The position numbers and the translations under genes are program-made. From positions 1 to 64,000 of the forward strand of contig DASPSR010000020.1 in the NCBI GenBank assembly GCA_035623825.1: 64,000 nt of DNA, read 5' to 3'. The stretch is from Nitrospirota bacterium (lineage in GTDB: Bacteria; Nitrospirota; UBA9217). Position 1 is the first letter of the stretch, and each line of letters starts with the position of its first letter. Shown here in pieces: positions 9,811 to 56,866 of this stretch. The notes below the pieces were generated by a model, which saw nothing but the letters and a program-made list of their open reading frames with translations, did not search any database and had not been told where the DNA came from.

Positions 9811-10290
9811 TAAGCGGATCTCCTTTAATGATCAATTGATTTCCTATCACAGACTATAGGAAGGTAAAAGAGATAAAGTTTGAGCAAGGAATTTATTATT
9901 TTTTACCCTCACACTATTTATTCGGTATTAGCTATGGAAATCTTTAGAGAATACATGGCCGGTTCAGACAGATGTCTTCGATGTGATAGGATATTTACCG
10001 AGATTCAAGCTTTTGTTCTGACTAAGGACCTTTTTTGCGATTTCTTAAGAGACTTTTCCCCTCAGAGTACATGTGAGCCGAATGTTCTCATTCGGTGACA
10101 GATGCTTATATCGTGTTGGCATATACACTTAGGATGGCATAGCTACCCAAAGTGCTGCACTTCGCTATAGAACTTGCAATAATTATTGTCATTTGAAAAC
10201 TATTAAACGTCGAACCATAACGCAAAATCCACTTGGGATTAACGAATTATCACAATTTCTTGCCTTAATATTTATCGAAGCGATCGTGGC

Positions 10291-43954: not shown

Positions 43955-45897
43955 CGGTTATTCTCAAGCCATGATTGGAACATCAGCACATCCCACAAAA
44001 GGTACTGCCAATTGCGGCTGCCCGAAAGATGTTCTTGCCACTTAATCCTGATCGGCTCAGGGTTGAAGAACCCTTCTTCACGGAGTCGTTTCTCATCCAG
44101 TAATTCACTAGCCCAATCGCGTAACGGGCCACGAAGCCAGTTGTCTATCGGTATGCCAAAACCCATTTTGGGCCGCTCAATCAATTTTTTGGGAACATAT
44201 TTATAGAGCACTTGACGTAATAGCCATTTCCCCTCTCCGTTGTGGATTTTATAGGAGAGCGGCAATCGCCAGGCAAACTCAATCAACCTGTGATCAAGAA
44301 ACGGCACCCGCGTTTCAAGACTAACTCCCATTGCTGCTCGGTCTATCTTGACCAAGATGTCATCAGGTAGATAGGTCAGTGTATCCAGGTACATCATCCG
44401 CTGAGTAAAGTCGGGCAGTTCTGGCCATATCGATGGATCGGTGAGCAGAGTTGTCGGCTCACGAGCACCGCTCACTACACTTCGTGGCTCTTTCCAATGA
44501 GATACAAAATGTCGATACATCTCCTCGGGAGACTTGACTGCGATAATATCTGCCAATTTGTGTAATTTGTCCCCCATATTGCGCAGACGAACCTTTGCCG
44601 GCAGGACAGCCGCGATAGTATTCCAGCTCGCCGGAGAAAGGGCGGTGCAGCCTGCCGCAACAGCAGACCGTAGAGCCCTCGGCATCCAACCAATTCGATT
44701 CCATAGTGACTTGCTGAGAAAATACCGGTTGTAACCGCCGAATAATTCGTCACCAGCGTCTCCAGACAGGCTGACTGTCACGTGATGGCGTGTAAGTTGT
44801 GAAACCAGATAGGTTGGTATCTGCGATGCATCGGAGAACGGTTCGTCATAGAGTGAGGGTAATTTGGGGATGACATCAATGGCATCCCGGGGAGTCACAT
44901 ACAGGTCTGTATGGTCCGTATGCAGGTGCGTTGCCACGGCTCTCGCATGCTCCGCCTCATTGTACTCTGCTTCATGAAACCCGATAGTGAAAGTTCTGAC
45001 TGGTCGGTTACTTTGCACCTGCATCAGAGCGACGACTGTTGAGGAGTCCACTCCGCCTGAGAGAAAAGCCCCCAAAGGCACATCGGAGACCATCTGCTGC
45101 CGAACCGAATTGCGCAGAAGGCTGTCTAGCTGCTCAACAGCGTTCTTCTCGTCTCCGATATAAGGATTTTTCATGCCTTGAATTACAATTTCTTTTAGCG
45201 ACCAGTATGTCTGCGGGTCGGGGACATAGCCGGTGATGTCTTTTCCTGGGTGAATAGTGAGGATTGTTCCCGGGATGAGCTTCTTAATGCCAGTGTAAAT
45301 CGAATACGGTGTCGGAATATAATTATGGCGAAGAAAGAGTGCAAGCGCATCATGATTGATATCATCGCTCCAGGCAGGATGAGCGCGTAAGGCTTTTAAT
45401 TCAGAGCCAAACAGAAACGTATTCTCTACCCAGCCGTAATAGAGTGGCTTCTCACCGACACGGTCACGGATAAGGTGAAGACATCTTTCCTCTCGGTCCC
45501 ACAAGGCAATGGCGAACATTCCTATAAAACGCTTTACAGAGTGTTCTATGCCCCACGCTTCAAATGCAGCCAATATCACTTCGGTATCTGAATGACCGCT
45601 CCAATCAACGCTCATTACAGATTCTAATTCTTTGCGGATATCGAGGTAATTGTAGATCTCCCCATTAAACACAATAACATAACGGCCTCCTGAGGATAGC
45701 ATTGGTTGATGTCCTGCCGGCGAGAGGTCGAGAATAGACAGTCGACGATGTCCTAATGCGATACCTGATTCATGATCGTACCATTGGCCACCATCATCGG
45801 GGCCCCGATGCACAATCGACTGGGTCATATCATTGAGCGCGCTCATGCGATCCCTTATCGATTGTTTTAAATTAATGAAGCCTACTATGCCGCACAT
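43951..45897 (-). CDS. asnB: Asparagine synthase-like glutamine amidotransferase (glycan amidation)
   Basis: MCGIVG, HRGPD, HRRLSI, FNGEIYN, LSGGVDS, SGDAGDELFGGY motifs. Confidence 0.93.
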   Translation of the reverse strand: MCGIVGFINLKQSIRDRMSALNDMTQSIVHRGPDDGGQWYDHESGIALGHRRLSILDLSPAGHQPMLSSGGRYVIVFNGEIYNYLDIRKELESVMSVDWSGHSDTEVILAAFEAWGIEHSVKRFIGMFAIALWDREERCLHLIRDRVGEKPLYYGWVENTFLFGSELKALRAHPAWSDDINHDALALFLRHNYIPTPYSIYTGIKKLIPGTILTIHPGKDITGYVPDPQTYWSLKEIVIQGMKNPYIGDEKNAVEQLDSLLRNSVRQQMVSDVPLGAFLSGGVDSSTVVALMQVQSNRPVRTFTIGFHEAEYNEAEHARAVATHLHTDHTDLYVTPRDAIDVIPKLPSLYDEPFSDASQIPTYLVSQLTRHHVTVSLSGDAGDELFGGYNRYFLSKSLWNRIGWMPRALRSAVAAGCTALSPASWNTIAAVLPAKVRLRNMGDKLHKLADIIAVKSPEEMYRHFVSHWKEPRSVVSGAREPTTLLTDPSIWPELPDFTQRMMYLDTLTYLPDDILVKIDRAAMGVSLETRVPFLDHRLIEFAWRLPLSYKIHNGEGKWLLRQVLYKYVPKKLIERPKMGFGIPIDNWLRGPLRDWASELLDEKRLREEGFFNPEPIRIKWQEHLSGSRNWQYLLWDVLMFQSWLENNR

Positions 45898-45915
45898 AAA
45901 TTAATCAGCCCTGCC

Positions 45916-47043
45916 TTACACAAGTTGTTCAAAGAGAGCTTCGTACCTCTTAACCACGGACTCAAGTGAAAAGTTTTCGCAGATCCGATTACGGGCCTTC
46001 TGCCCAAGATAACGGCGCTGTTCAGACCCCATGCTGGCTAGATCATATAACGCATCGGACAACGCTTTCGGATCACGTGGTGGCACCACAATGCCGCTGT
46101 CACCGACGATCATTGCTGAATCACCGACGTCGGTCACGACGCATGGAATCGCACAAGACATCGCCTCGCCGACAACATTTGGAAAACCTTCGTTATACGA
46201 AGAAGAAACGGCAATATCCACTGCTGCCATTAGCTGGGGAATATCACTGCGTTCTCCCAGTAAATGTGTCCTTTTTGTTATTCCCAATTTTTCGATTTCT
46301 GCTTGCAATGGGACGTTATGTGCATATATTCCCTTGCCGGCTAAGACGAATTGAGCTTCTATGTTTTTTGCCAGCAGCAGCGATGCCGCTTTTAAAAAAG
46401 TCGAGTGATCCTTCATCGGATGGTATCGGCCGATGAGACATATCAAGAGAGTGTCTGCGCTAACCCCCAGAGATGCACGGATTGTTCGACTTCCCTCTGC
46501 AGAAGGAGCAAATGAATTAATATCGAAACCGTTTGGAATTACGATGCTTTTATCATCGCGGTATCCAAACGCCTTATGGTGTTTGGAACTTGTTGCTGAA
46601 TTGTAAAGAATACGTGTCACTTGACCAGACATCAATGCACCACATTTAATGATCAGCCTTGTCAGTCGTTTCTCGTATGATAAGGAGTAAAGGGACTGAC
46701 GGATATTCCACATTACGGATACTCTTCGATTCGTCAATTTAGATGCTATCAGCGATAAAAGGTTGCCATGGTACATCCATCCCTGAATAACATCCGGTTG
46801 AATGGTGCGAATCACTCGTGATAGTCTCAGCATCGCGGCTAATGAAGGGATAGAGCGCTTCATATCAAGAGTATATACCGGCACGCCTAATGCCTTCATT
46901 TTACCGCCCAGCGTGCCTTTGTCCGTCATTGAAATTACGATGTGTGAAAACCTCTGCCTGTCAGATCCGGACACAAGCTTATAGAGCATCATCTCGGCTC
47001 CGCCGGTACCTAGGCCCGTGGTAATATGGACGATCTTAATCAT
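45916..47043 (-). CDS. Glycosyltransferase family 4 (WbnK-like)
   Basis: GGAEMML, WMYH, IPNGFD, EGFPNVVGEAM motifs. Confidence 0.92.
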   Translation of the reverse strand: MIKIVHITTGLGTGGAEMMLYKLVSGSDRQRFSHIVISMTDKGTLGGKMKALGVPVYTLDMKRSIPSLAAMLRLSRVIRTIQPDVIQGWMYHGNLLSLIASKLTNRRVSVMWNIRQSLYSLSYEKRLTRLIIKCGALMSGQVTRILYNSATSSKHHKAFGYRDDKSIVIPNGFDINSFAPSAEGSRTIRASLGVSADTLLICLIGRYHPMKDHSTFLKAASLLLAKNIEAQFVLAGKGIYAHNVPLQAEIEKLGITKRTHLLGERSDIPQLMAAVDIAVSSSYNEGFPNVVGEAMSCAIPCVVTDVGDSAMIVGDSGIVVPPRDPKALSDALYDLASMGSEQRRYLGQKARNRICENFSLESVVKRYEALFEQLV

Positions 47044-48161
47044 TGTATACAGAACAAGGCTCTTTCTGTCTGCGATACCATTGACTCTACACTAAAATAT
47101 TCGTAAATTCTCTTACGCGCCATAAATGGTTCCTTCGCTCCAGCCTGTTCCAATTTAGACAGCATCCTCTCAATTCCGGAAGCAAGGGCGTTTGCATCCT
47201 GTGGTTTGACGACCACGCCCGTTTCGCCGACAATCAAGGCAGAATCCCCTACATTTGTCACTACGCATGGTACATCACATGCCATTGCCTCACCGACTAC
47301 GTTAGGAAAGCCTTCTCCATATGATGACAGCACGGCAACGTCAAAAGCATTATAAACTGACGGCATATCCTTTCGCGCGCCTGCCCAAATTATTCTTCCT
47401 TCCAACCCGCTGTTGATCGCTAAGCGAAAAAGCTCCTGCTTATAACTTTCCTGTCCATCGCCAACGCAAACAAACTTAACATTATTACGTTCTTTAACAA
47501 GAATAGTTGCAGCCCGTAAAAATGTAGGATGGTCTTTCATGGGGTCCAATCGCGCAACAAGTCCAATTAATAGCTCCTGTGGCTCTACTTTCCACTCTTT
47601 TCGCGTCAGTACGCCTTCTTCACGGAGAGGTCTAAATCTGTCGGTATCAATTCCGTTTGGGACCACTATCGTTTTATCCGAAGGGAATCCTTTTTTTATA
47701 GCATACTCTCGTCCAGCATGGGAATTAGCAATTATAAGATCAGCATATCTGGATAGTCTGCATTCAAGCCGGTATAAAAGGCGGGATAAAAAATCATACT
47801 GTGCCAGATCCATGTAACCTGCTCTAACTCCCCAAACGATCTTAATCTTAGGTATAAATCGTTTGACAATAACCGAGAGTATACACGATACACCCAAGAA
47901 CGCGTAAAGGTATTCAGCGCGCTGATCACGCAACACTGTGAACAGGCGATTCATAAAAGCAAAAACGTCCCATCTTCCTTTTTTTTCCAAAGGAATTACC
48001 GGTATACCTGCTTCTGCAAGGGAAGCAGTCAATAGTCCACCCGGATAGAAGACCAGTACACTGACATCATGGCCTTTGAGTTTAAATCCGCGTGACATCT
48101 CAACTAACTGTTGTTCCGCGCCCCCCACTTCCAGAGACCTAATAAGAAATACAATTTTCAT
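47040..48161 (-). CDS. Glycosyltransferase family 4 (WbnK-like)
   Basis: GGAEQQL, RLDPMKDH, EGFPNVVGEAM motifs. Confidence 0.92.
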   Translation of the reverse strand: MKIVFLIRSLEVGGAEQQLVEMSRGFKLKGHDVSVLVFYPGGLLTASLAEAGIPVIPLEKKGRWDVFAFMNRLFTVLRDQRAEYLYAFLGVSCILSVIVKRFIPKIKIVWGVRAGYMDLAQYDFLSRLLYRLECRLSRYADLIIANSHAGREYAIKKGFPSDKTIVVPNGIDTDRFRPLREEGVLTRKEWKVEPQELLIGLVARLDPMKDHPTFLRAATILVKERNNVKFVCVGDGQESYKQELFRLAINSGLEGRIIWAGARKDMPSVYNAFDVAVLSSYGEGFPNVVGEAMACDVPCVVTNVGDSALIVGETGVVVKPQDANALASGIERMLSKLEQAGAKEPFMARKRIYEYFSVESMVSQTERALFCIQ

Positions 48162-48440
48162 TATAGATAAGGCTCCATGAATAGAAACCTCGTTTTGAGG
48201 TGGAACCGTTCTCGGAGAGAAGTTCTAAAAACTTCCCAAGTGAGAACGGTGCCGCTCCTTTCAGCAGCATGTCAATTATGGAGTACAACGCCTGCAGGAG
48301 CCAAAAGGTATCTGTAATTCTCTGTGTCCCTGTCAATAATCAACTGAGAAAGTGCCAAGGGTTTAGAACGCCATGGAAGTCATTGCTCATTTGTTTGACT
48401 TAAAACTTAAACTTCTTTCTGAATATTATGTGATTCTTAT

Positions 48441-49223
48441 TTAATTCCGAGAATCATGCGTGCCATCAATAAGAGGCTTCTTCATAACAAAAACTCGTGA
48501 CGCAAATTTAGCGCATACAAATTTCAAGAAAGGCCTAAATACGCTCCATTCGAAAAGAGGAAGAAACATTGATAGCCTCTTACGCCTGCTTATGCGAAAG
48601 AGGATATAGTCAGTATCATAAAAGGTATTGGTAAAATATACTCCGAATTTTTGCTCGATTTCATATAGTGGCTTATAGTGTGTCCATTTATCTATCCAAT
48701 CTAATCCGAAAGATGTCCACTGTCTGATAGATTTGCCTTCCTTGTAATATCCAAGCCCCATTGCTCTAAGCGCCAAAGTATAATAGTATCTGGTCCTAGT
48801 GCCTTTCGTAAGCCAATGAACAAAAGGGATACCTACGTGTCCTTCTCTCCAGACATCCACGCTTGGGAAAATATTGATAAAAATCCCACTCGGCTTGAGT
48901 ACCCGGTTTATTTCAAAAAGAGGTTTAGTAAAATCATCAATATGTTCAAAAACTTGGTTGCTTATTATAACATCAAATTTATCCGAATCGAAAGGGATAC
49001 GTCCATTGTTCAGTTCGAAAATCCGTGTTCCCAGAAGGCCGCGCTTTTTCGCTTCGTCGCGATAGCTCCCACCTTCGTAAAATTCTTCGACACCATAAGC
49101 GTCAAATCCAGCACTGATGGCGTTTTCAACAATCTGACCTGCGCCACATCCGTAATCTAGCAGGCATGAGGTATTGCTTGCAAGTCTCTTCGCTAGATCA
49201 ATCGAATACTCATAATTAAGCAT
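48441..49223 (-). CDS. Class I SAM-dependent methyltransferase
   Basis: LDYGCGAG, SNQVFEH, RVLKPSG motifs. Confidence 0.88.
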   Translation of the reverse strand: MLNYEYSIDLAKRLASNTSCLLDYGCGAGQIVENAISAGFDAYGVEEFYEGGSYRDEAKKRGLLGTRIFELNNGRIPFDSDKFDVIISNQVFEHIDDFTKPLFEINRVLKPSGIFINIFPSVDVWREGHVGIPFVHWLTKGTRTRYYYTLALRAMGLGYYKEGKSIRQWTSFGLDWIDKWTHYKPLYEIEQKFGVYFTNTFYDTDYILFRISRRKRLSMFLPLFEWSVFRPFLKFVCAKFASRVFVMKKPLIDGTHDSRN

Positions 49224-49321
49224 TGAAATCTCCGCATAATAGCATTGCGTATATTTCAGAATGATGATATTCTTGTAATAATACTCCGGATTGCACCTTG
49301 CCAAATTATAAGAGTAACCGC

Positions 49322-50173
49322 TTAACAGCTCTTCTCTTGTGATGTTCTCTGCTTAACAAAAACATATTCATTACAACCAATCCCGCCGCCGCACGTCTTT
49401 AATTTTTCGAGAACGAAGCCTTTTTGTCTGCAAAAATCGAATATTTCTTCCGGCTTAGCCACTTCAAATGGATATCCACCAACCCAATCGATCACGTCAT
49501 ACCATGGATTCATGCCTCTTTCATGCACATACGTTCGCCACGTGTAAAATGGCTTGCATCTTAGAATATCTCGCACTGTTGTCGGACCCCAAAGCCGAAC
49601 AAATGATGGCAATAAAACAATAAATTTTAACCCCCTTGGTAAAAGGTTATAGACCTTTTTGATTTTTAACCAATATCGGCTTTTTCTTCCCTGATCGTTA
49701 TAAATTGAAATAAAGAGTTTTCCTCCGTCAGTTACTAGGTCAGCAATAAGCTCCAGGGCTTTCCACATGGCGCCAGTATGATGCAGAACGCCCCAAGAAT
49801 AGACGATATCAAACGTACCAAGAGATTTAAGATACTCCTCGTCAAGAACGGAACCTTCCTCAACCACATTCCAATTCGAGTCATTCGGGAAATAGCGCCG
49901 CCTGAGTTCGGCAGTGCATGCAACTGATTGTGGATCATAATCGAAGGAATTTACTCGAGCGCCAAGACTCCGAGCAGCCAGAGAAAAAAGCCCGCTACCA
50001 GAGCCGACATCGAGGAACGTTTTTCCTGCAATGCTATCGACCCCCAATTTATTTTGCAAAGAAGCACGCGCTTCATTAATTCGATCATTATTAATATGAG
50101 AAAGAAAACGCGACCAATTTCTACCAAACTCAAATCTTCCGCCAGCATCAATCTCTTTGGCGTGTTCCTCCAT
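49322..50173 (-). CDS. Class I SAM-dependent methyltransferase
   Basis: RFEFGRNW, LDVGSGSG, YSWGVLHHTG, DWVGGYPFE motifs; SD GGAGGA. Confidence 0.9.
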   Translation of the reverse strand: MEEHAKEIDAGGRFEFGRNWSRFLSHINNDRINEARASLQNKLGVDSIAGKTFLDVGSGSGLFSLAARSLGARVNSFDYDPQSVACTAELRRRYFPNDSNWNVVEEGSVLDEEYLKSLGTFDIVYSWGVLHHTGAMWKALELIADLVTDGGKLFISIYNDQGRKSRYWLKIKKVYNLLPRGLKFIVLLPSFVRLWGPTTVRDILRCKPFYTWRTYVHERGMNPWYDVIDWVGGYPFEVAKPEEIFDFCRQKGFVLEKLKTCGGGIGCNEYVFVKQRTSQEKSC

Positions 50174-50221
50174 ATTTATTTTCCTCCATAACATCATACG
50201 TTCTCTTCTCAATGGTAAAAC

Positions 50222-51460
50222 CTATACCCCTTTGTTGCTAATGCGGCTTCGCGCACTCATTGATGCCATAATTGCGAATGAAATCAGAAAATAATATTCT
50301 TCAACTATATTGTGGCTGAAAAACCCAAATAATGTTACAAATGCAAGAAACGGCAATGCTGTCTGTCTAGCTTCTCCACTAGCGCGCCAAATCGATGCCA
50401 GGAGAAGCAAAGGTAATATGAACAGCCCGATGACCCCATAATCTGCCATAAAATAAAGATACGTGTTATGTGTCGATATCTCCTCGTTCCATGTCAAGGT
50501 AGAACCTATACCGTTACCAATCAGTGGATGGTTTAAAAACATCTCCCAAGCACGTTTAAAAACCACCCTTCTCTCGTCAAGGCTCGCGTCTTCCGTAGTC
50601 AAGGGATTCGAGATCCAGTCTATTCTCTCAGTAATGTTTGGTAGGTTGATACCTTCACTTAATTTGTCAATAAGATCAATTTCGGTCAACTGGTTTAATA
50701 TCAATAAAATAATGAAGGTTGCTATTGCTATGCCTGCAATAAATTGTTTTTTGTTCAGTACGTTTTGAAATAATAAAATTAGGGTTACGAGAATCCACCC
50801 TATCAAGGCCGTTCTTGAAAATGTCAACAAGATGCCAATGAGGACTATATAAAGATACAGCGTCCGAATTTTTTTTGGCAATAATTCAATTGTCAATATC
50901 ATTCCTAAAACCAAAGCCGCTCCAGCTTGATTTGCATTCAAATAAAAACCGGCAGCTCTTCCCGGATTTGCAAATTCATTATCGAGGGGAACAAATAAAG
51001 AAGGATTCATGAAATCGTAGATATTATCAGCTATCGCTATAAGCACTGCCAGAAGCAAAACCCATCGCACTTTGCGTTGAAGACCTCCATCATCTTCAAG
51101 CGCTGTAAAAAAAAGGAGAATGACGAAAGCACTCAATATTCTTCGTTCTAGAGTTTTTATAACAATCTCAGATGGATCTGAAAAGAAGAAACTCACCAGA
51201 TTAATCATTATAAAAAAAAATGCCCAGTATAATAGGGGCTTAGAACAAGTAATTTCGGATACTTGATCCCTTGCAAAAAGCTTGGACGTTAAAGAAAGCA
51301 AAATAACTGCTGCAAATAATCCAATCCAGAATGACGGCGGAGTTGATGAGTAACCAACAAGAACTAAATAGATCGGAATGTTGGCGTAAAAAAAGAAGAC
51401 GGCTGCATAAACATGAAACGACTTTATGAAATTCATATTTAGTTCAATTTTGGCATGCAA
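50222..51460 (-). CDS. O-antigen polymerase/ligase family membrane protein (probable Wzy)
   Basis: Multi-TM; RAAGFYLNAN, TFSRTA, PLIGNG, THNTYL (Wzy_C-like). Confidence 0.8.
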   Translation of the reverse strand: MHAKIELNMNFIKSFHVYAAVFFFYANIPIYLVLVGYSSTPPSFWIGLFAAVILLSLTSKLFARDQVSEITCSKPLLYWAFFFIMINLVSFFFSDPSEIVIKTLERRILSAFVILLFFTALEDDGGLQRKVRWVLLLAVLIAIADNIYDFMNPSLFVPLDNEFANPGRAAGFYLNANQAGAALVLGMILTIELLPKKIRTLYLYIVLIGILLTFSRTALIGWILVTLILLFQNVLNKKQFIAGIAIATFIILLILNQLTEIDLIDKLSEGINLPNITERIDWISNPLTTEDASLDERRVVFKRAWEMFLNHPLIGNGIGSTLTWNEEISTHNTYLYFMADYGVIGLFILPLLLLASIWRASGEARQTALPFLAFVTLFGFFSHNIVEEYYFLISFAIMASMSARSRISNKGV

Positions 51461-51533
51461 CTAATGGCAATTTAGGGATTTAAGCTTTTTCATTGAATCG
51501 GCCATCACACTCAAACACCCAGTATTGTGACGT

Positions 51534-52343
51534 TTATTTTGCCCATTTCCCACGACAGATTATATATGGTGACATCATTTTGCTTGACGGCATGCTCCCA
51601 ATAACTTCTTCAATTTGCCATACCATCATGGATGTAAAACTCAAAGCGCGACAAAAGAACATTTTTATTCTAGTGACTGTCCGCATCCTGCTAAGTCCAT
51701 CCATGTTCAATACGCCGAAATTTGTTGATAAAAAATAATCGCATGTGAGTGCTGTCAAGTCAGCTGCATGATGGGCTTCTCTTAACATGTTCATATCGAG
51801 GGGTTCATGCTTATCATAAATCGATTTGTTGAGTTTTTTTTGCAACAGCCCCACTAAACCAGCCAAATTAGGTATTACGGTTATCATTAATCCGCCGGGG
51901 CTTAAGTAGCTAGTATAAGCATTTATGCAATCGAAGGTATTTTTAAAATGCTCCACAACACCGAAGGAGACGACCACATCGTAAGCATGTAGCATGTGCG
52001 CGGGAGGATTGAAAAAATCCATGTTCATGACTTCACCTGAGACACCCGCATGAGATAGGATTTCTCTTGCCTTAACACATCCTATCTCCGAATAATCGAT
52101 GCCGGAGACGACAAAACCGAATTCTTTGGCAAAATAGGGCAGCCATTGAGACCTCGCGCAGCCTATTTCCAAGATTTTTTTCCCCTTTGTTGTCATTCCC
52201 GAAAATGCATTTTGAAAATATTCATGAAATTGCCGGTTAATGTGATTGTTTAACCCCGGCAAACGGGGATCGACCGCAGATAGTACTTCTCTGTTTTCCC
52301 ATGTCCGATCCCAATAGGTTTTTCCTGCTTTATCTTGATTCAT
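51534..52343 (-). CDS. Class I SAM-dependent methyltransferase
   Basis: LEIGCA, GIDYSE, SFGVVEHF, LSPGG motifs. Confidence 0.88.
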   Translation of the reverse strand: MNQDKAGKTYWDRTWENREVLSAVDPRLPGLNNHINRQFHEYFQNAFSGMTTKGKKILEIGCARSQWLPYFAKEFGFVVSGIDYSEIGCVKAREILSHAGVSGEVMNMDFFNPPAHMLHAYDVVVSFGVVEHFKNTFDCINAYTSYLSPGGLMITVIPNLAGLVGLLQKKLNKSIYDKHEPLDMNMLREAHHAADLTALTCDYFLSTNFGVLNMDGLSRMRTVTRIKMFFCRALSFTSMMVWQIEEVIGSMPSSKMMSPYIICRGKWAK

Positions 52344-53701
52344 AGTAATTCAGTGGCAGCTTTTTTCATTAATCTCTTAAGCATGTGGCTAAGGTAACAG
52401 AATGAAACGAAATAGACGATAGAAGTCGAAAGGGCTATACCGCTGACCCCCATCCACTTTATGAATACATAATTCATGACAATATTTATCACAATGCTAA
52501 TAACAGCACCCCACATTAATAGGTTATTGGCTTTAAATGCTGAAATCAGACGCACAATGAGAATACCCGATATGTAAAATGGCATCTGAATGGCAAAGAG
52601 GGCCTGGATACGACCTACCAAGTTAGTATCCTGTACAGTAAAAGAACCGCGTTGGAACAGAATCCTTACGATAGGTTCAGACATCACGACCAGAAGGATG
52701 GTCAAAGGAATTGTGACGGCAAATATTAATCTCGAAAACTTTTTCAAGGTATGGTGAATCCCGCCCCAATTCCTATTAACGACCATGATCGAAAAATATG
52801 GTATAACCGCGGTTCCTAATGCAGCTGCCGCAAGATTCAGCGGAAATCCTATGGCTTTGTTTCCATAATTAAGGGCTGCTACACTGCCAGGTCCCAATGA
52901 TGCTGCCATCCCTTGATTGATGGGACCGGTACTGCCCAATAGAAATGCCCCTGTTATCATTGGGAGATATTGCCCTGCCACTTCTCTCAAATGAGGATCC
53001 ATGCCATGCCATTTCGGCCACAGTGAGATGCCTTGACGATTTAATACGATGCCGAGTAGCGTTGTTTCTATAATTATTCCACAGACGGTTCCTAAGGCCA
53101 GAGCAGAAATACCCCATGATTTTCCGAGCAATAAAAATAAGATGATTACAAATGGTGTAATCACCGGAGTGACGGCGACAAGTGCAAATTGTTCACTAGC
53201 ATTAAGAACTGCGCCCCAGATCGTATTGACTCCGTATATTACTACGACCGGAGAAATAACATAGAACAATTTGAGGGTAAATGTCAGCTTCTGCGAATTG
53301 AAACCTGTCGCAATAATAGGCATGAAATAAGGCGCCGAAATGGCCATAATGACAGTGGCCGCAACCAGCAGACTGAGACTCCAAATCATCACGTTTGAAA
53401 AAAGGCGGTTTGCTGCATTTCTTCCTTCCTCTTCCTTCACACGAATATAGGTAGGAATAAGTGCCGCATTAAAAGAGCCTCCGATCACATTTATGGCAAA
53501 CATCGGTATAATAAATGCTACAAGGAAAGCATCAAGAGAGTCGGCAGTACCGAAAGATGCGGCAATAATAATTTCCTTGGCCATAGTGATCAGTTTAGCG
53601 CCAAAGCTAAGGGACAGAATTACTATGGTTGCGCTTAGGATCTTTCGATTAGTGCTCTGGCGTGCCCAGTCTGTCCATTGCTTAATAAGTTCCATAAACA
53701 C
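52340..53701 (-). CDS. MurJ/MviN-family flippase within the glycan cluster
   Basis: AASFGTADSLDAFLVAF, GSVAALNYG, LFQRGSF, GIALSTS motifs. Confidence 0.85.
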   Translation of the reverse strand: MFMELIKQWTDWARQSTNRKILSATIVILSLSFGAKLITMAKEIIIAASFGTADSLDAFLVAFIIPMFAINVIGGSFNAALIPTYIRVKEEEGRNAANRLFSNVMIWSLSLLVAATVIMAISAPYFMPIIATGFNSQKLTFTLKLFYVISPVVVIYGVNTIWGAVLNASEQFALVAVTPVITPFVIILFLLLGKSWGISALALGTVCGIIIETTLLGIVLNRQGISLWPKWHGMDPHLREVAGQYLPMITGAFLLGSTGPINQGMAASLGPGSVAALNYGNKAIGFPLNLAAAALGTAVIPYFSIMVVNRNWGGIHHTLKKFSRLIFAVTIPLTILLVVMSEPIVRILFQRGSFTVQDTNLVGRIQALFAIQMPFYISGILIVRLISAFKANNLLMWGAVISIVINIVMNYVFIKWMGVSGIALSTSIVYFVSFCYLSHMLKRLMKKAATELL

Positions 53702-53721
53702 TACCCATAGCGTTCATCATT

Positions 53722-54774
53722 TTACCTGATATTCCTTATATACCATTCCAGCGCTTCATCTAAGCCCTGCTGTACGGTGTGTGTCGGTTCATATCCCAGT
53801 AGTTTCACTGCCTTGTCGATGTTCGCTTGTGAATGTTTTACGTCTCCGGGGCGAAAATCGCGATAAATAGGCATAAACTTCATTAAATGATTATATTTCT
53901 TTTCGAGTTTGGACCGCAACATTTCAAACAATTCATTCAGATTGGTGCGTGCATTCACCGCGGTATTGTAAACCGTGTTTATCGCCGCTGGATTATCCTG
54001 TGTCGCCGCAAGCAGATTTATTTGTATAACATTTTCGATATAGCAAAAGTCTCGACTAGTTTCTCCAGTCCCGTTGATGTAAACAGGTTCATTTTTTATC
54101 ATGCTTGCAATCCATTTTGGTATCACAGCTGCATAAGCTCCTTCGGGATCTTGACGAGGTCCGAATACGTTGAAGTAACGAAGCCCGATTGTTTCGAGAC
54201 CGTAACATCGTGAGAATACATCTGCATAAAGCTCATTTACATATTTCGTCACAGCATACGGTGATAGTGGCTTACCGATTTTATCTTCTACTTTGGGGAG
54301 TCCGGGATGATCACCGTACGTTGAACTGCTTGCAGCATAGACAACCCGTCTCACGCGGTTGTCGCGCGCTGCTACCAGCACATTTAGCGTCCCCGTGATA
54401 TTATTTTCATTTGTATTGATCGGGTCCTCGAGAGACCGGGGCACAGATCCCAGAGCCGCTTCATGAAGAACATAATCGACGTTTCTACATGCCTGTTGGC
54501 AAATTGTTAAATCACGGATGTCCCCGTTGATAAATATAAACCTGGACCATTGCTTTCCATTTACAAGTGATTTTACCTCAGATACGTTTTTTTCTTTTCC
54601 TGTAATAAAATTGTCTACTCCCACGACGATCTGGTCAAGTTTCAAGAGATGCTCAAGCAGATTCGATCCGATGAACCCCGCTACTCCTGTAATGAGCCAG
54701 TGTTTCTGATCACTTTGTAATTTTTTCCTTACTGCAATATATGCTGGATTTGGATTATCGTCCCTGGCTGTCAT
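53722..54774 (-). CDS. wbpP: UDP-N-acetylglucosamine 4-epimerase (WbpP/TviC)
   Basis: [42 protein letters not shown] motifs. Confidence 0.93.
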
Positions 54775-54906
54775 TATGACCTCATACAGTGTCCGTATTC
54801 CTTCCCTATAGAACCATATGTTACGTTTTTTGCCTGTATGACACAGTTAATTTATTTTTCAATTATATATTAATGAGAAAATAAATAAAATAACCAATTG
54901 ACATTG

Positions 54907-54935
54907 TTGACATTCTTTCTATCTAGGTTTATATT
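54907..54935 (+). promoter_or_regulatory. Sigma-70 promoter upstream of the acyltransferase cassette
   Basis: TTGACA-17 bp-TATATT. Confidence 0.65.
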
Positions 54936-54962
54936 CATTACACAATCAATCAATAGTTACTT

Positions 54963-55024
54963 GTATCGTCGGACGCTGCGGTCTTTTTGTATGACAACCG
55001 GCTCCGCTTAATCACGGGTCGGGT
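54963..55024 (+). mobile_element. Eroded integron attC site, upstream
   Basis: Imperfect hairpin CGGACGCTGCGGTC...GACAACCGGCTCCG, then L'-like GCTTAAT, 5 bp, R'-like GTCGGGT. Left end not recognisable. Confidence 0.5.
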
Positions 55025-55072
55025 GACACAACAATCGCCCGTTTTACCCACGAAAACTGAACATAGGATTGT

Positions 55073-56224
55073 ATGAGATCTTCCTCTGGTGTCCATTTCA
55101 TTGCCTTAGATCACGTCAGAGCTTTGGCCGCTTTCATGATCTTTACGTGGCACTTTACTCATGCCTTTAGTGACAATCCAGTTCCTGTCAACTATATTAC
55201 GGCACTATTCCCTTTCTCACTCCTCGCTGCTGGCCACACTGGCGTAGCCCTCTTTATGACCCTTAGTGGTTACTTGTTTGCAAAGCTACTAGACGGAAAA
55301 ACCATTGACTACAGGGCTTTTATTTGGAACCGGGTCCTGCGCCTGTTCCCACTTCTTGTGGTTGTAATCCTCATAGTCGGCGCCAAGAATGTTATTACTG
55401 GCCAGACTCTTTACTCTTATGCTTGCTCCATTGCGAAAGGCGTCATACTTCCAACCCTTCCCAATGGGGCATGGTCAATTACGATCGAGTTTCATTACTA
55501 TATAGTTCTCCCGATGTTTCTGTGGATGTTCAGAAAATCAAAAATGCTTCCCATTTCAATAATTATTGCAGCTATTGCACTACGCTTATTTATTTATCAT
55601 GAGAAAGGAGAAATCCAGTCACTTGCTTACTGGACAATTATTGGTCGAATAGATCAGTTTGCAATTGGCATGATTATATATCAATTCCGCGTTTTCTTTA
55701 CCCGCCGTCATGTCCTTGCCATTACGGTAATCATTGGATTCTCTGCATTCTACTGGTATTTCAATCTTATCGGAGGATTCTATCAGAACCCTTCCTACCC
55801 GTCGCCTAGCCCTCTCTGGCTGATTCTCCCGACAATCGAAGGAATAGCCTACGCCGTTGGCATCGCTTGGTATGAAAGTTCCTTCTTCCACTCAACGACC
55901 GGACTTTCTAGATTTATAGGCCGTATAGGAGAGTTTTCGTACTCCATTTATCTTCTCCACTGGTTTGTCGTCATTCAGGCTGCCAGATTCGTGCAAGAGC
56001 GAATTATGAACATATCCAATTTCTACTTAGCGTGCTTTTGGTCGACTGTCTTCTTCCTTTTGATGATACCAGCTGGGTATCTCAGCTTTCGTTTCATTGA
56101 AACCCCTTTCCTCAGGCTAAGAAAGCGCTACATCATTGTGCCACACAATAGTGCGGAGACAGTATGTCATGAAGCCCATCAAAGCGCCCCAACGGACGCT
56201 CTAAAGCGTGCCGCCGAACTTTGA
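55073..56224 (+). CDS. Acyltransferase-3 family O-acyltransferase (OafA-like)
   Basis: LDHVRALA, GVALFMTLSGY, NRVLRLFP, WSITIEFHYY, SYSIYLLH motifs; multi-TM. Confidence 0.92.
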   Translation: MRSSSGVHFIALDHVRALAAFMIFTWHFTHAFSDNPVPVNYITALFPFSLLAAGHTGVALFMTLSGYLFAKLLDGKTIDYRAFIWNRVLRLFPLLVVVILIVGAKNVITGQTLYSYACSIAKGVILPTLPNGAWSITIEFHYYIVLPMFLWMFRKSKMLPISIIIAAIALRLFIYHEKGEIQSLAYWTIIGRIDQFAIGMIIYQFRVFFTRRHVLAITVIIGFSAFYWYFNLIGGFYQNPSYPSPSPLWLILPTIEGIAYAVGIAWYESSFFHSTTGLSRFIGRIGEFSYSIYLLHWFVVIQAARFVQERIMNISNFYLACFWSTVFFLLMIPAGYLSFRFIETPFLRLRKRYIIVPHNSAETVCHEAHQSAPTDALKRAAEL

Positions 56225-56232
56225 CATTCTAT
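56174..56232 (+). mobile_element. Degenerate integron attC site (59-base element)
   Basis: GCCCATC-AAAGC-GCCCCAAC-GGACGCTCTAAAGCGTGCC-GCCGAAC-TTTGAC-ATTCTAT: R''/5/L''/hairpin/L'/6/R' layout, 59 bp in total. Confidence 0.7.
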
Positions 56233-56254
56233 GCCCATCGTTGAATCCGGAACT

Positions 56255-56866
56255 AAGTATGATACCGTAACAGCATGCGAATAATCAGCATAGAGTTCAC
56301 CGATATATTTTGTGGCAGCATAAGGAGCAAGAGGGACCAATCTCATCTCCTAACTTCGGCAGCCCCGGATTAGCTTCATAGTTGAACTGCTTGTCGTACA
56401 GACTATTCGTTTTATATTGGCGTTGCCTGCAGCGGGGAAAATATTCAGAGTACCAGTAATGTTGTTCTCGTAAGTATTTTTGGGGTCTTTCAGAGAGTTC
56501 GGGACAGATTCTATGTCTGCCTCGTGAAGTGCAAAATCTACAACTTTGTATGCTTCCGGGTAAAGTGGTACGATTGCCATATCACATTCCATAAATGTGA
56601 ATTGGGAGCACCGCCAGACATACCAAGACAGCTTACTTCTCCTAGATTTTTCCTCTTTCCAACTAAAAAATTATCAAGCCCGACCACTTCTTGGTCGAGC
56701 TTTAAGAGATTTTCGAGATATTAGAACCTGTGAAACCACCAATCCCCGGCTATGAGCCAACATCTTGGGTTTTATACAGCTATTTTTTAGTTTCAGCTCT
56801 TTTGATCAGTCATATTAATAGTGGTATATTGCTGTTAAGCTCATCCTCACCTTTATTAGAATCCAT
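56255..56866 (-). pseudogene. Frameshifted, truncated wbpP-like epimerase pseudogene
   Basis: Fragments across frames: [80 protein letters not shown]; colinear with the N-terminal half of 53722-54774. Confidence 0.9.

Follow-up and report, generated by a model that had tools for sequence, protein, structure and literature searches.

The acyltransferase gene and its glycan cluster

The analyzed window, a contiguous stretch of 64,000 nucleotides, contains a large glycan cluster. Its genes encode ligase-like, Wzy_C, and wzz-like proteins, a UDP-sugar dehydrogenase, a TviC-like epimerase, flippases, glycosyltransferases, and methyltransferases, and most minus-strand genes between 10.8 and 64 kb have Pfam matches. 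An AT3-family acyltransferase gene was originally noticed as the sole plus-strand gene in about 53 kb, and it is indeed the only long plus-strand open reading frame between 10.8 and 64 kb that has no overlap with a minus-strand gene. The features of the locus are the following.

45837-56260, not stranded: glycan block of 10.4 kb without a syntenic match in the same-genus genome G001
53722-54774, minus strand: intact incoming TviC/WbpP-like epimerase, synonymous sites saturated relative to G001
54907-54935, plus strand: sigma-70-like promoter match, TTGACA-17-TATATT, 11 of 12 positions
54972-55018, plus strand: putative eroded attC remnant of a lost upstream cassette (left-arm 8-nt word at 54972-54979, right half at 54996-55018)
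55018-55072, plus strand: cassette core GTCGGGT (55018-55024; the integron copy L011 has GTTGGGC), followed by the 5' leader
55073-56224, plus strand: AT3 acyltransferase gene, standalone, 383 amino acids, PF01757; last 16 codons inside the attC
56174-56232, plus strand: putative eroded attC of the cassette, with homology and matrix support, a bottom-strand hairpin, and no covariance-model match; boxes R'' GCCCATC, L'' 56186-56193, L' 56213-56219, R' ATTCTAT
56227-56253, plus strand: stretch past the crossover common to the sister copy L012 (about 26 bp, z 6.7, 0/2000 shuffles)
56261-56813, minus strand: remnant of the resident TviC/WbpP-like epimerase gene, a decayed 5' half truncated near codon 186; right edge of the block

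The acyltransferase has a single Pfam domain (E 2e-26, 93.1 bits against the gathering cut-off of 31). Two motifs described as essential in AT3 proteins, R-X10-H and RxxR (PMC9833829), are intact, with R16-X10-H27 in helix 1 and R87xxR90 at helix 3; R16, H27, R87, and R90 are invariant across 59 aligned rows. The predicted model is all-helical, with a mean pLDDT of 83 and values below 50 in the tail, and a Foldseek search of this model against PDB yielded no match with E < 0.001. Two more AT3 genes are present in the genome, G000:C41:64065-65045, which contains an in-frame TAA, and C55:70445-71350.

The near-consensus sigma-70 promoter proposed upstream of the gene is found as a sequence match. 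When the surrounding 298 bp are shuffled, 104 of 5000 permutations contain a match of this quality (about 0.02), and the background of matches at 11 or more of the 12 positions is 201 sites in 3.24 Mb. Two TTGACA hexamers lie 8 bp apart at this promoter-like site (54899-54912). The absence of an integrase gene, initially noted for the window, extends to the assembled genome (G000, 89.65% complete), in which no intI scores over the cut-off. Such genes are found in 28 of 64 genomes of the host's family and in none of the four genomes of its genus.

attC remnants and an integron relative

The 59-bp element at 56174-56232 has the attC anatomy that was first read from it, GCCCATC-5-GCCCCAAC-hairpin-GCCGAAC-6-ATTCTAT. 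The folding energy is -11.7 kcal/mol for the bottom strand (z -2.7, with 3 of 200 shuffles equally good) and -9.4 kcal/mol for the top strand; the R box remains unpaired in the best fold, and the L box forms three Watson-Crick and four G-T pairs of seven. Homology of the element to sites at three related loci is reflected in z values of 10 for L012, 3.6 for L011 (3/2000 shuffles), and 4.1 for L009, and a position-fixed matrix yields p 0.0025 for the left half and p 0.026 for the right half. All four L-box mismatches (56186-56219) are bottom-strand G-T wobbles, which is expected in one case of 16 under random transitions, as though folding remained favored while the mismatches arose.

The second attC-like right half, suggested upstream of the gene, is supported modestly, less than was first stated (12/2000 shuffles against the L011 attC, matrix p 0.017). 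The corresponding left half shares one 8-mer with the L011 attC and is not significant against it (664/2000 shuffles). A match of 80% to 54995-55035 in an unrelated contig lacks attC-like flanks and was ascribed to chance. Both GTT crossover triplets are mutated, as had been claimed, to GTC upstream and ATT downstream, and the AAC of R'' is altered to ATC. Thus, the RYYYAAC and GTTRRRY cores of functional cassettes are not intact in GCCCATC, ATTCTAT, or the upstream GTCGGGT.

The covariance-model check proposed with the original prediction was negative. With our own model, built from 31 unrelated attC sites (21 taken from kin-genome integrons and 10 from plasmid integrons, chosen by a pattern scan and visual inspection), both sites score below 9 bits, without a match at E up to 10. 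Therefore, neither of them is an attC at E < 1 by this model, the level at which SALIN and CALIN elements are detected. The model also has no match elsewhere in the window, in the whole genome, in the G001 cluster, in five viral relatives, or in two other AT3 loci. It is insensitive to dead crossovers, since the site of the sister copy L012 receives only 13.4 bits. Both sites in the window are too eroded for the covariance model, and the case for a cassette therefore rests on descent.

Evidence for descent is provided by the metagenome locus L011, where a 72%-identical protein is encoded by the second cassette of a complete integron with an intI gene (TIGR02249, 460.8 bits against the cut-off of 265). 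This relative is bounded by canonical attC sites in the intI-linked array; in our covariance model they score 33.9 and 35.1 bits and serve as controls. The ancestral core pair GTTGGGC/GCCCAAC, predicted from the window alone, occurs letter for letter in this integron. The leader is collinear with the L011 leader (z 5.6, 0/2000 shuffles), and the upstream remnant aligns with the upstream attC of L011. Because the leader, cores, and attC align to a complete integron cassette, we accept the cassette origin, and by sequence comparison it is very probable that the gene at 55073-56224 is a former integron cassette. Hence the central claim, a cassette-borne AT3 gene with dead attC sites residing in a glycan cluster outside any integron, is supported by L011 and the sites in the window. 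The first cassette of the L011 integron (L011:1157-1416, about 250 bp) has no forward gene of at least 90 amino acids; by eye, what looks like a short antisense frame extends across it.

It was also suggested that the gene came to read through its attC in the course of domestication. The last 16 codons do lie inside the attC, but this is a family-wide trait rather than damage to this copy. The same KRxAxL tail is found in 11 of the closest homologs, which end at 381-383 amino acids, and the intact L011 cassette gene likewise stops inside its own attC. Among 119 homologs, whose attC state was read from the peptide tails, 24 have tails whose match to translated DNA-verified attC sites exceeds the 99th percentile of the shuffled controls; 32 stop too early for a call. 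Since read-through is found both in these 24 homologs and in the intact cassette, it is ancestral. The tailed homologs are spread over many branches of the tree, which was built by a quick method and has many open forks. Their median distance to the family consensus is 0.136 vs. 0.202 for the untailed ones, with the reservation that the rows are not independent, as 8 of the 24 tailed proteins form one tight clade. In the predicted model of the window protein the tail is disordered.

The sister copy and a probably exchanged glycan block

The closest copy, L012, is a sister of the gene in the window (86% amino acid identity, SH-aLRT 99) and lies antisense behind a wzz-like gene in another wzz/ligase cluster. 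The L012 contig ends inside the gene, and the comparison covers a part of the gene and the downstream side. Here, the attC retains an intact R'' and a good L box, and the crossover G is replaced by the same A as in the window. The downstream site scores 12.2 and 8.0 bits by the matrix in L012 vs. 1.9 and 3.0 bits in the window; the better site of the sister indicates erosion rather than a half-formed attC. Similarity between the two copies ends 26 bp after the crossover, and the next 60 nt are unrelated. Since both the dead crossover A and the adjacent 26 bp are common to L012 and the window, the cassette was most probably immobilized before the two lines split. The synonymous distance between them is 0.62 for the cassette and 1.85 for the flanking wzz-like gene, which points to movement of an already dead cassette between clusters without an integrase.

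The genome G001 is syntenic with the window on both sides of the locus, with similarity lost at 45836 and regained at 56261. With synteny from this one kin genome (77% complete), only the broken epimerase indicates which lineage received the block. The block between these positions encodes two GT4 glycosyltransferases, three methyltransferases, a Wzy_C protein, a MurJ-family flippase, the second epimerase, and the former cassette. In the matching place G001 carries a different Wzy_C protein, flippase, and methyltransferase, an IS remnant, and an AT3 gene. The latter (L082:8136-9224, plus strand) is an unrelated PF01757 gene, co-oriented and located directly after the epimerase, with no attC around it and no match in a search with the query protein. 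Both versions of the slot thus hold an acyltransferase. A further segment of the window, 10032-10177, matches at 75% the DNA beside an rve-family IS remnant in the G001 glycan cluster and is possibly an IS scar.

At the right edge of the block, the epimerase remnant, which was not among the features originally noticed, has 83% DNA identity to the intact G001 gene, with the match starting at 56261. It has accumulated 10 indels in 176 codons with dN 0.19, compared with dN 0.035 and no indel in the adjacent dehydrogenase; pairs of compensating indels raise such DNA-level counts in genes that are diverged but intact, and at least four frameshifts in the remnant are uncompensated. A loose paralog alignment, in which the broken epimerase reached the crossover, was rejected, as the match to the true ortholog stops at 56261. 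The edge of the block is 34 bp beyond the crossover, and the 3' half of the epimerase is absent from the left junction. For these two reasons we interpret the event as a block swap and not as an attG insertion. A SALIN formed by attG insertion would have host sequence starting again directly at the crossover, left and right, which is not the case here. Both junctions are crossed, without a difference, by contigs from other runs, which share habitat and year and may belong to one campaign; the junctions are therefore not a misassembly. An empty-site joint was not seen in contigs of six runs; contigs drop rare variants. The original prediction had the cassette captured outside an integron; capture by an integrase at this very spot is not supported: by comparison with L012 and G001, the cassette appears to have arrived already immobilized, at the edge of the swapped block.

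Relatives of the gene occur in diverse contexts. Worn attC sites in glycan clusters are observed in the window, in L012, and in L009/L010 (22.8 bits). Relatives without an attC trace are found both in glycan clusters (L007, L018-L020) and in other or unknown contexts (L006/L013/L014, L015, L077). In total, 7 of 11 other relative loci with 44-69% identity have no attC trace (L006, L007, L015, L018, L019, L020, and L077), and therefore the family does not consist exclusively of cassettes. In three genomes of the same phylum (L018-L020), relatives with 54-64% identity are antisense beside a UDP-sugar dehydrogenase gene, and in at least one of them a transposase-like open reading frame adjoins the relative. 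Relatives are present in 3 of 400 genomes of the phylum; 40 kin genomes contain no close relative (one weak match), annotated phages yielded none, and plasmids carry four distant ones.

Proposed history, function, and related systems

The account that we favor, and regard as fairly probable as a whole, is that a former cassette encoding a membrane acyltransferase, immobilized earlier, arrived with the block and was kept for O-acetylation of the glycan. Its starting point is the occurrence of the AT3 family as a true cassette in L011. A piece of an array, comprising the cassette, the preceding attC, and about 26 bp downstream of the cassette, would then have left its integron, either through a rearrangement or because two cassettes were inserted together at a secondary site. 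We propose an array piece because an excised single cassette would carry no upstream attC arm. Immobilization likely took place in an earlier host. Comparison of the copies shows that the downstream crossover G had been lost in the ancestor common to L012 and the window copy, and that further erosion of R'' and the L box is confined to the window line. Subsequently, as suggested by synteny, recombination independent of an integrase would have placed the block within the gene of the resident epimerase, with another epimerase taking its place. The AT3 reading frame stayed intact while its broken neighbor decayed. At present, a transcript from the promoter-like site would cross the collapsed upstream attC, and the enzyme would transfer an acyl group from acyl-CoA to an O-antigen-like repeat at the periplasmic face.

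Retention is suggested by the state of the gene. It has no frameshift or stop over 383 codons, is twice as long as the broken epimerase, and has dN/dS of 0.09 relative to both L012 and L011. The argument presupposes that the epimerase was not already dead before the swap. Under this assumption the gene was probably kept. O-acetylation of the surface glycan of the cluster, namely of an O-antigen-like repeat, is its likeliest role. The TviB/TviC-like pair suggests the presence of N-acetylgalactosaminuronic acid in this glycan, and this sugar is often O-acetylated.

Another scenario is that the former cassette came with the block as a passenger and is now losing or has changed its function. The protein departs from the consensus at 10 of 177 conserved columns; the median of the 119 homologs is 4, and 10 or more departures occur in 12 of them. 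Six of the ten are concentrated in residues 23-53 of the first periplasmic loop and include D52A and E53A, where Glu53 is 98% conserved and Ala occurs in none of the 119 homologs. This loop is described as facing the periplasm and divergent in AT3-only proteins (PMC7448272). The changes may reflect either a new acceptor or decay, and the activity may be altered or fading. The distance to the family consensus, 0.207 compared with the median of 0.136 for the 24 attC-tailed homologs, and the in-frame stop in another AT3 gene of the same genome point in the same direction. However, the reading frame has remained open, with dN/dS as low as given above, next to a neighbor with its 10 indels and an excess of about 0.15 changes per site, and in OafA the residue G33, which aligns by eye to residue 53, is reported to tolerate Ala (PMC7448272). 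We therefore consider a fading passenger unlikely.

Activity on another acceptor, such as peptidoglycan, another polysaccharide, or a small molecule, is likewise unlikely. It would agree with the broad range of acceptors described for AT3 proteins (PMC9833829), with the antisense position of the gene relative to the cluster, and with the relative L006, which adjoins lnt and a UbiA-family gene outside glycan clusters. In contrast, four separate lineages of the family are located in glycan clusters (the window with L012, L009, L007, and L018-L020), the same slot in G001 holds an unrelated AT3 gene, and a 51% relative is found among phage tail genes.

Insertion of a single cassette by an integrase at a secondary site here, followed by decay in place, is largely refuted and in our view very improbable. 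Such insertions are reported to be frequent and able to disrupt genes (10.1101/2022.09.11.507474), and a broken gene does adjoin the attC; nevertheless, the break is displaced by 34 bp, 26 of them common to L012, the 3' half of the epimerase is missing at the left junction, an upstream attC arm is present, and the synonymous distance of the cassette to L012 is far below that of the wzz-like gene. Finally, a line that was never a cassette, with chance motifs or a half-formed cassette heading into integrons, would fit the lack of a covariance-model match and of attC traces in several relatives, but is hardly credible given the collinearity with a complete integron cassette, the attC-derived tails on many branches of the tree, and the better site kept by L012.

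The history that we favor, with a former cassette carried in by a block, can be compared with several known systems. Single attC sites lacking an integron-integrase (SALINs) and attG insertion were described by Loot et al. (10.1101/2022.09.11.507474), who noted that isolated cassettes could be domesticated through attC loss. The window resembles a SALIN in having a cassette outside integrons, in an intI-less genome, with an adjoining promoter-like site. It differs in that a SALIN is defined by a detectable attC, whereas the window has two remnants, neither detectable with our model, and in that its last move was a block swap with an edge not at the crossover. CALINs have been proposed as a step between gene acquisition and genome stabilization (Cury et al. 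2016, PMC4889954). Like a CALIN, the locus has two elements derived from attC and lacks intI, but both sites are eroded below detection, there is a single cassette, and the stabilization end point is visible. The locus is the stabilization stage already predicted for SALIN and CALIN cassettes and adds a worked example of that process, not a new mechanism. Stabilization of cassettes outside integrons is hard to see because its end state has no detectable attC. Here, a donor-type cassette, a half-eroded sister, a fully eroded copy, and a kin genome with an empty slot are in hand together, which makes the path testable.

Cassettes of Vibrio rotiferianus DAT722 are reported to alter surface polysaccharide, and cassette 78 encodes a putative O-acetyltransferase (PMC3590141). 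As in our case, these cassettes are proposed to decorate a host glycan; unlike it, they still reside in a chromosomal array, and the comparison with cassette 78 is by description. In the parts of that report cited here, no gene is tied to the surface-polysaccharide change. Further parallels, again by description, are the O-antigen acetylases Oac of Shigella phage Sf6 and WbaK of Salmonella E1, both AT3-only proteins with R-X10-H and RxxR motifs that arrived horizontally (PMC9558356, PMC9833829); for WbaK, homologous recombination is the predicted route of entry into the end of an O-antigen cluster (PMC9558356). The known carriers in these cases are phages or recombination tracts. The words "integron" and "cassette" are absent from the main text of the review cited here, and no attC-flanked acyltransferase in a glycan cluster was found in the literature covered by our search, which extended to a minority of subscription journals.

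A broader and tentative possibility is that the AT3 family forms a standing pool of cassettes that has been repeatedly drained into O-antigen-type clusters across phyla, its members losing their crossovers, becoming invisible to attC searches, and being traded as ordinary serotype genes. If so, many "native" glycan acylases would be former cassettes recognizable only by the attC-encoded tail (xQQGAP..D in 24 of 119 homologs). This C-terminal tail is a protein-level marker by which such genes can be counted. The locus would link integrons to variation of the surface glycan, which is a likely way for environmental bacteria to escape phages.

The 51% relative mentioned above (L094:3001-4113) lies on a phage contig between apparent tail-fiber assembly and tail-sheath genes, whose roles were assigned by eye. 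A place among phage tail genes is typical of serotype converters, and the L094 gene is a candidate serotype-converting gene.
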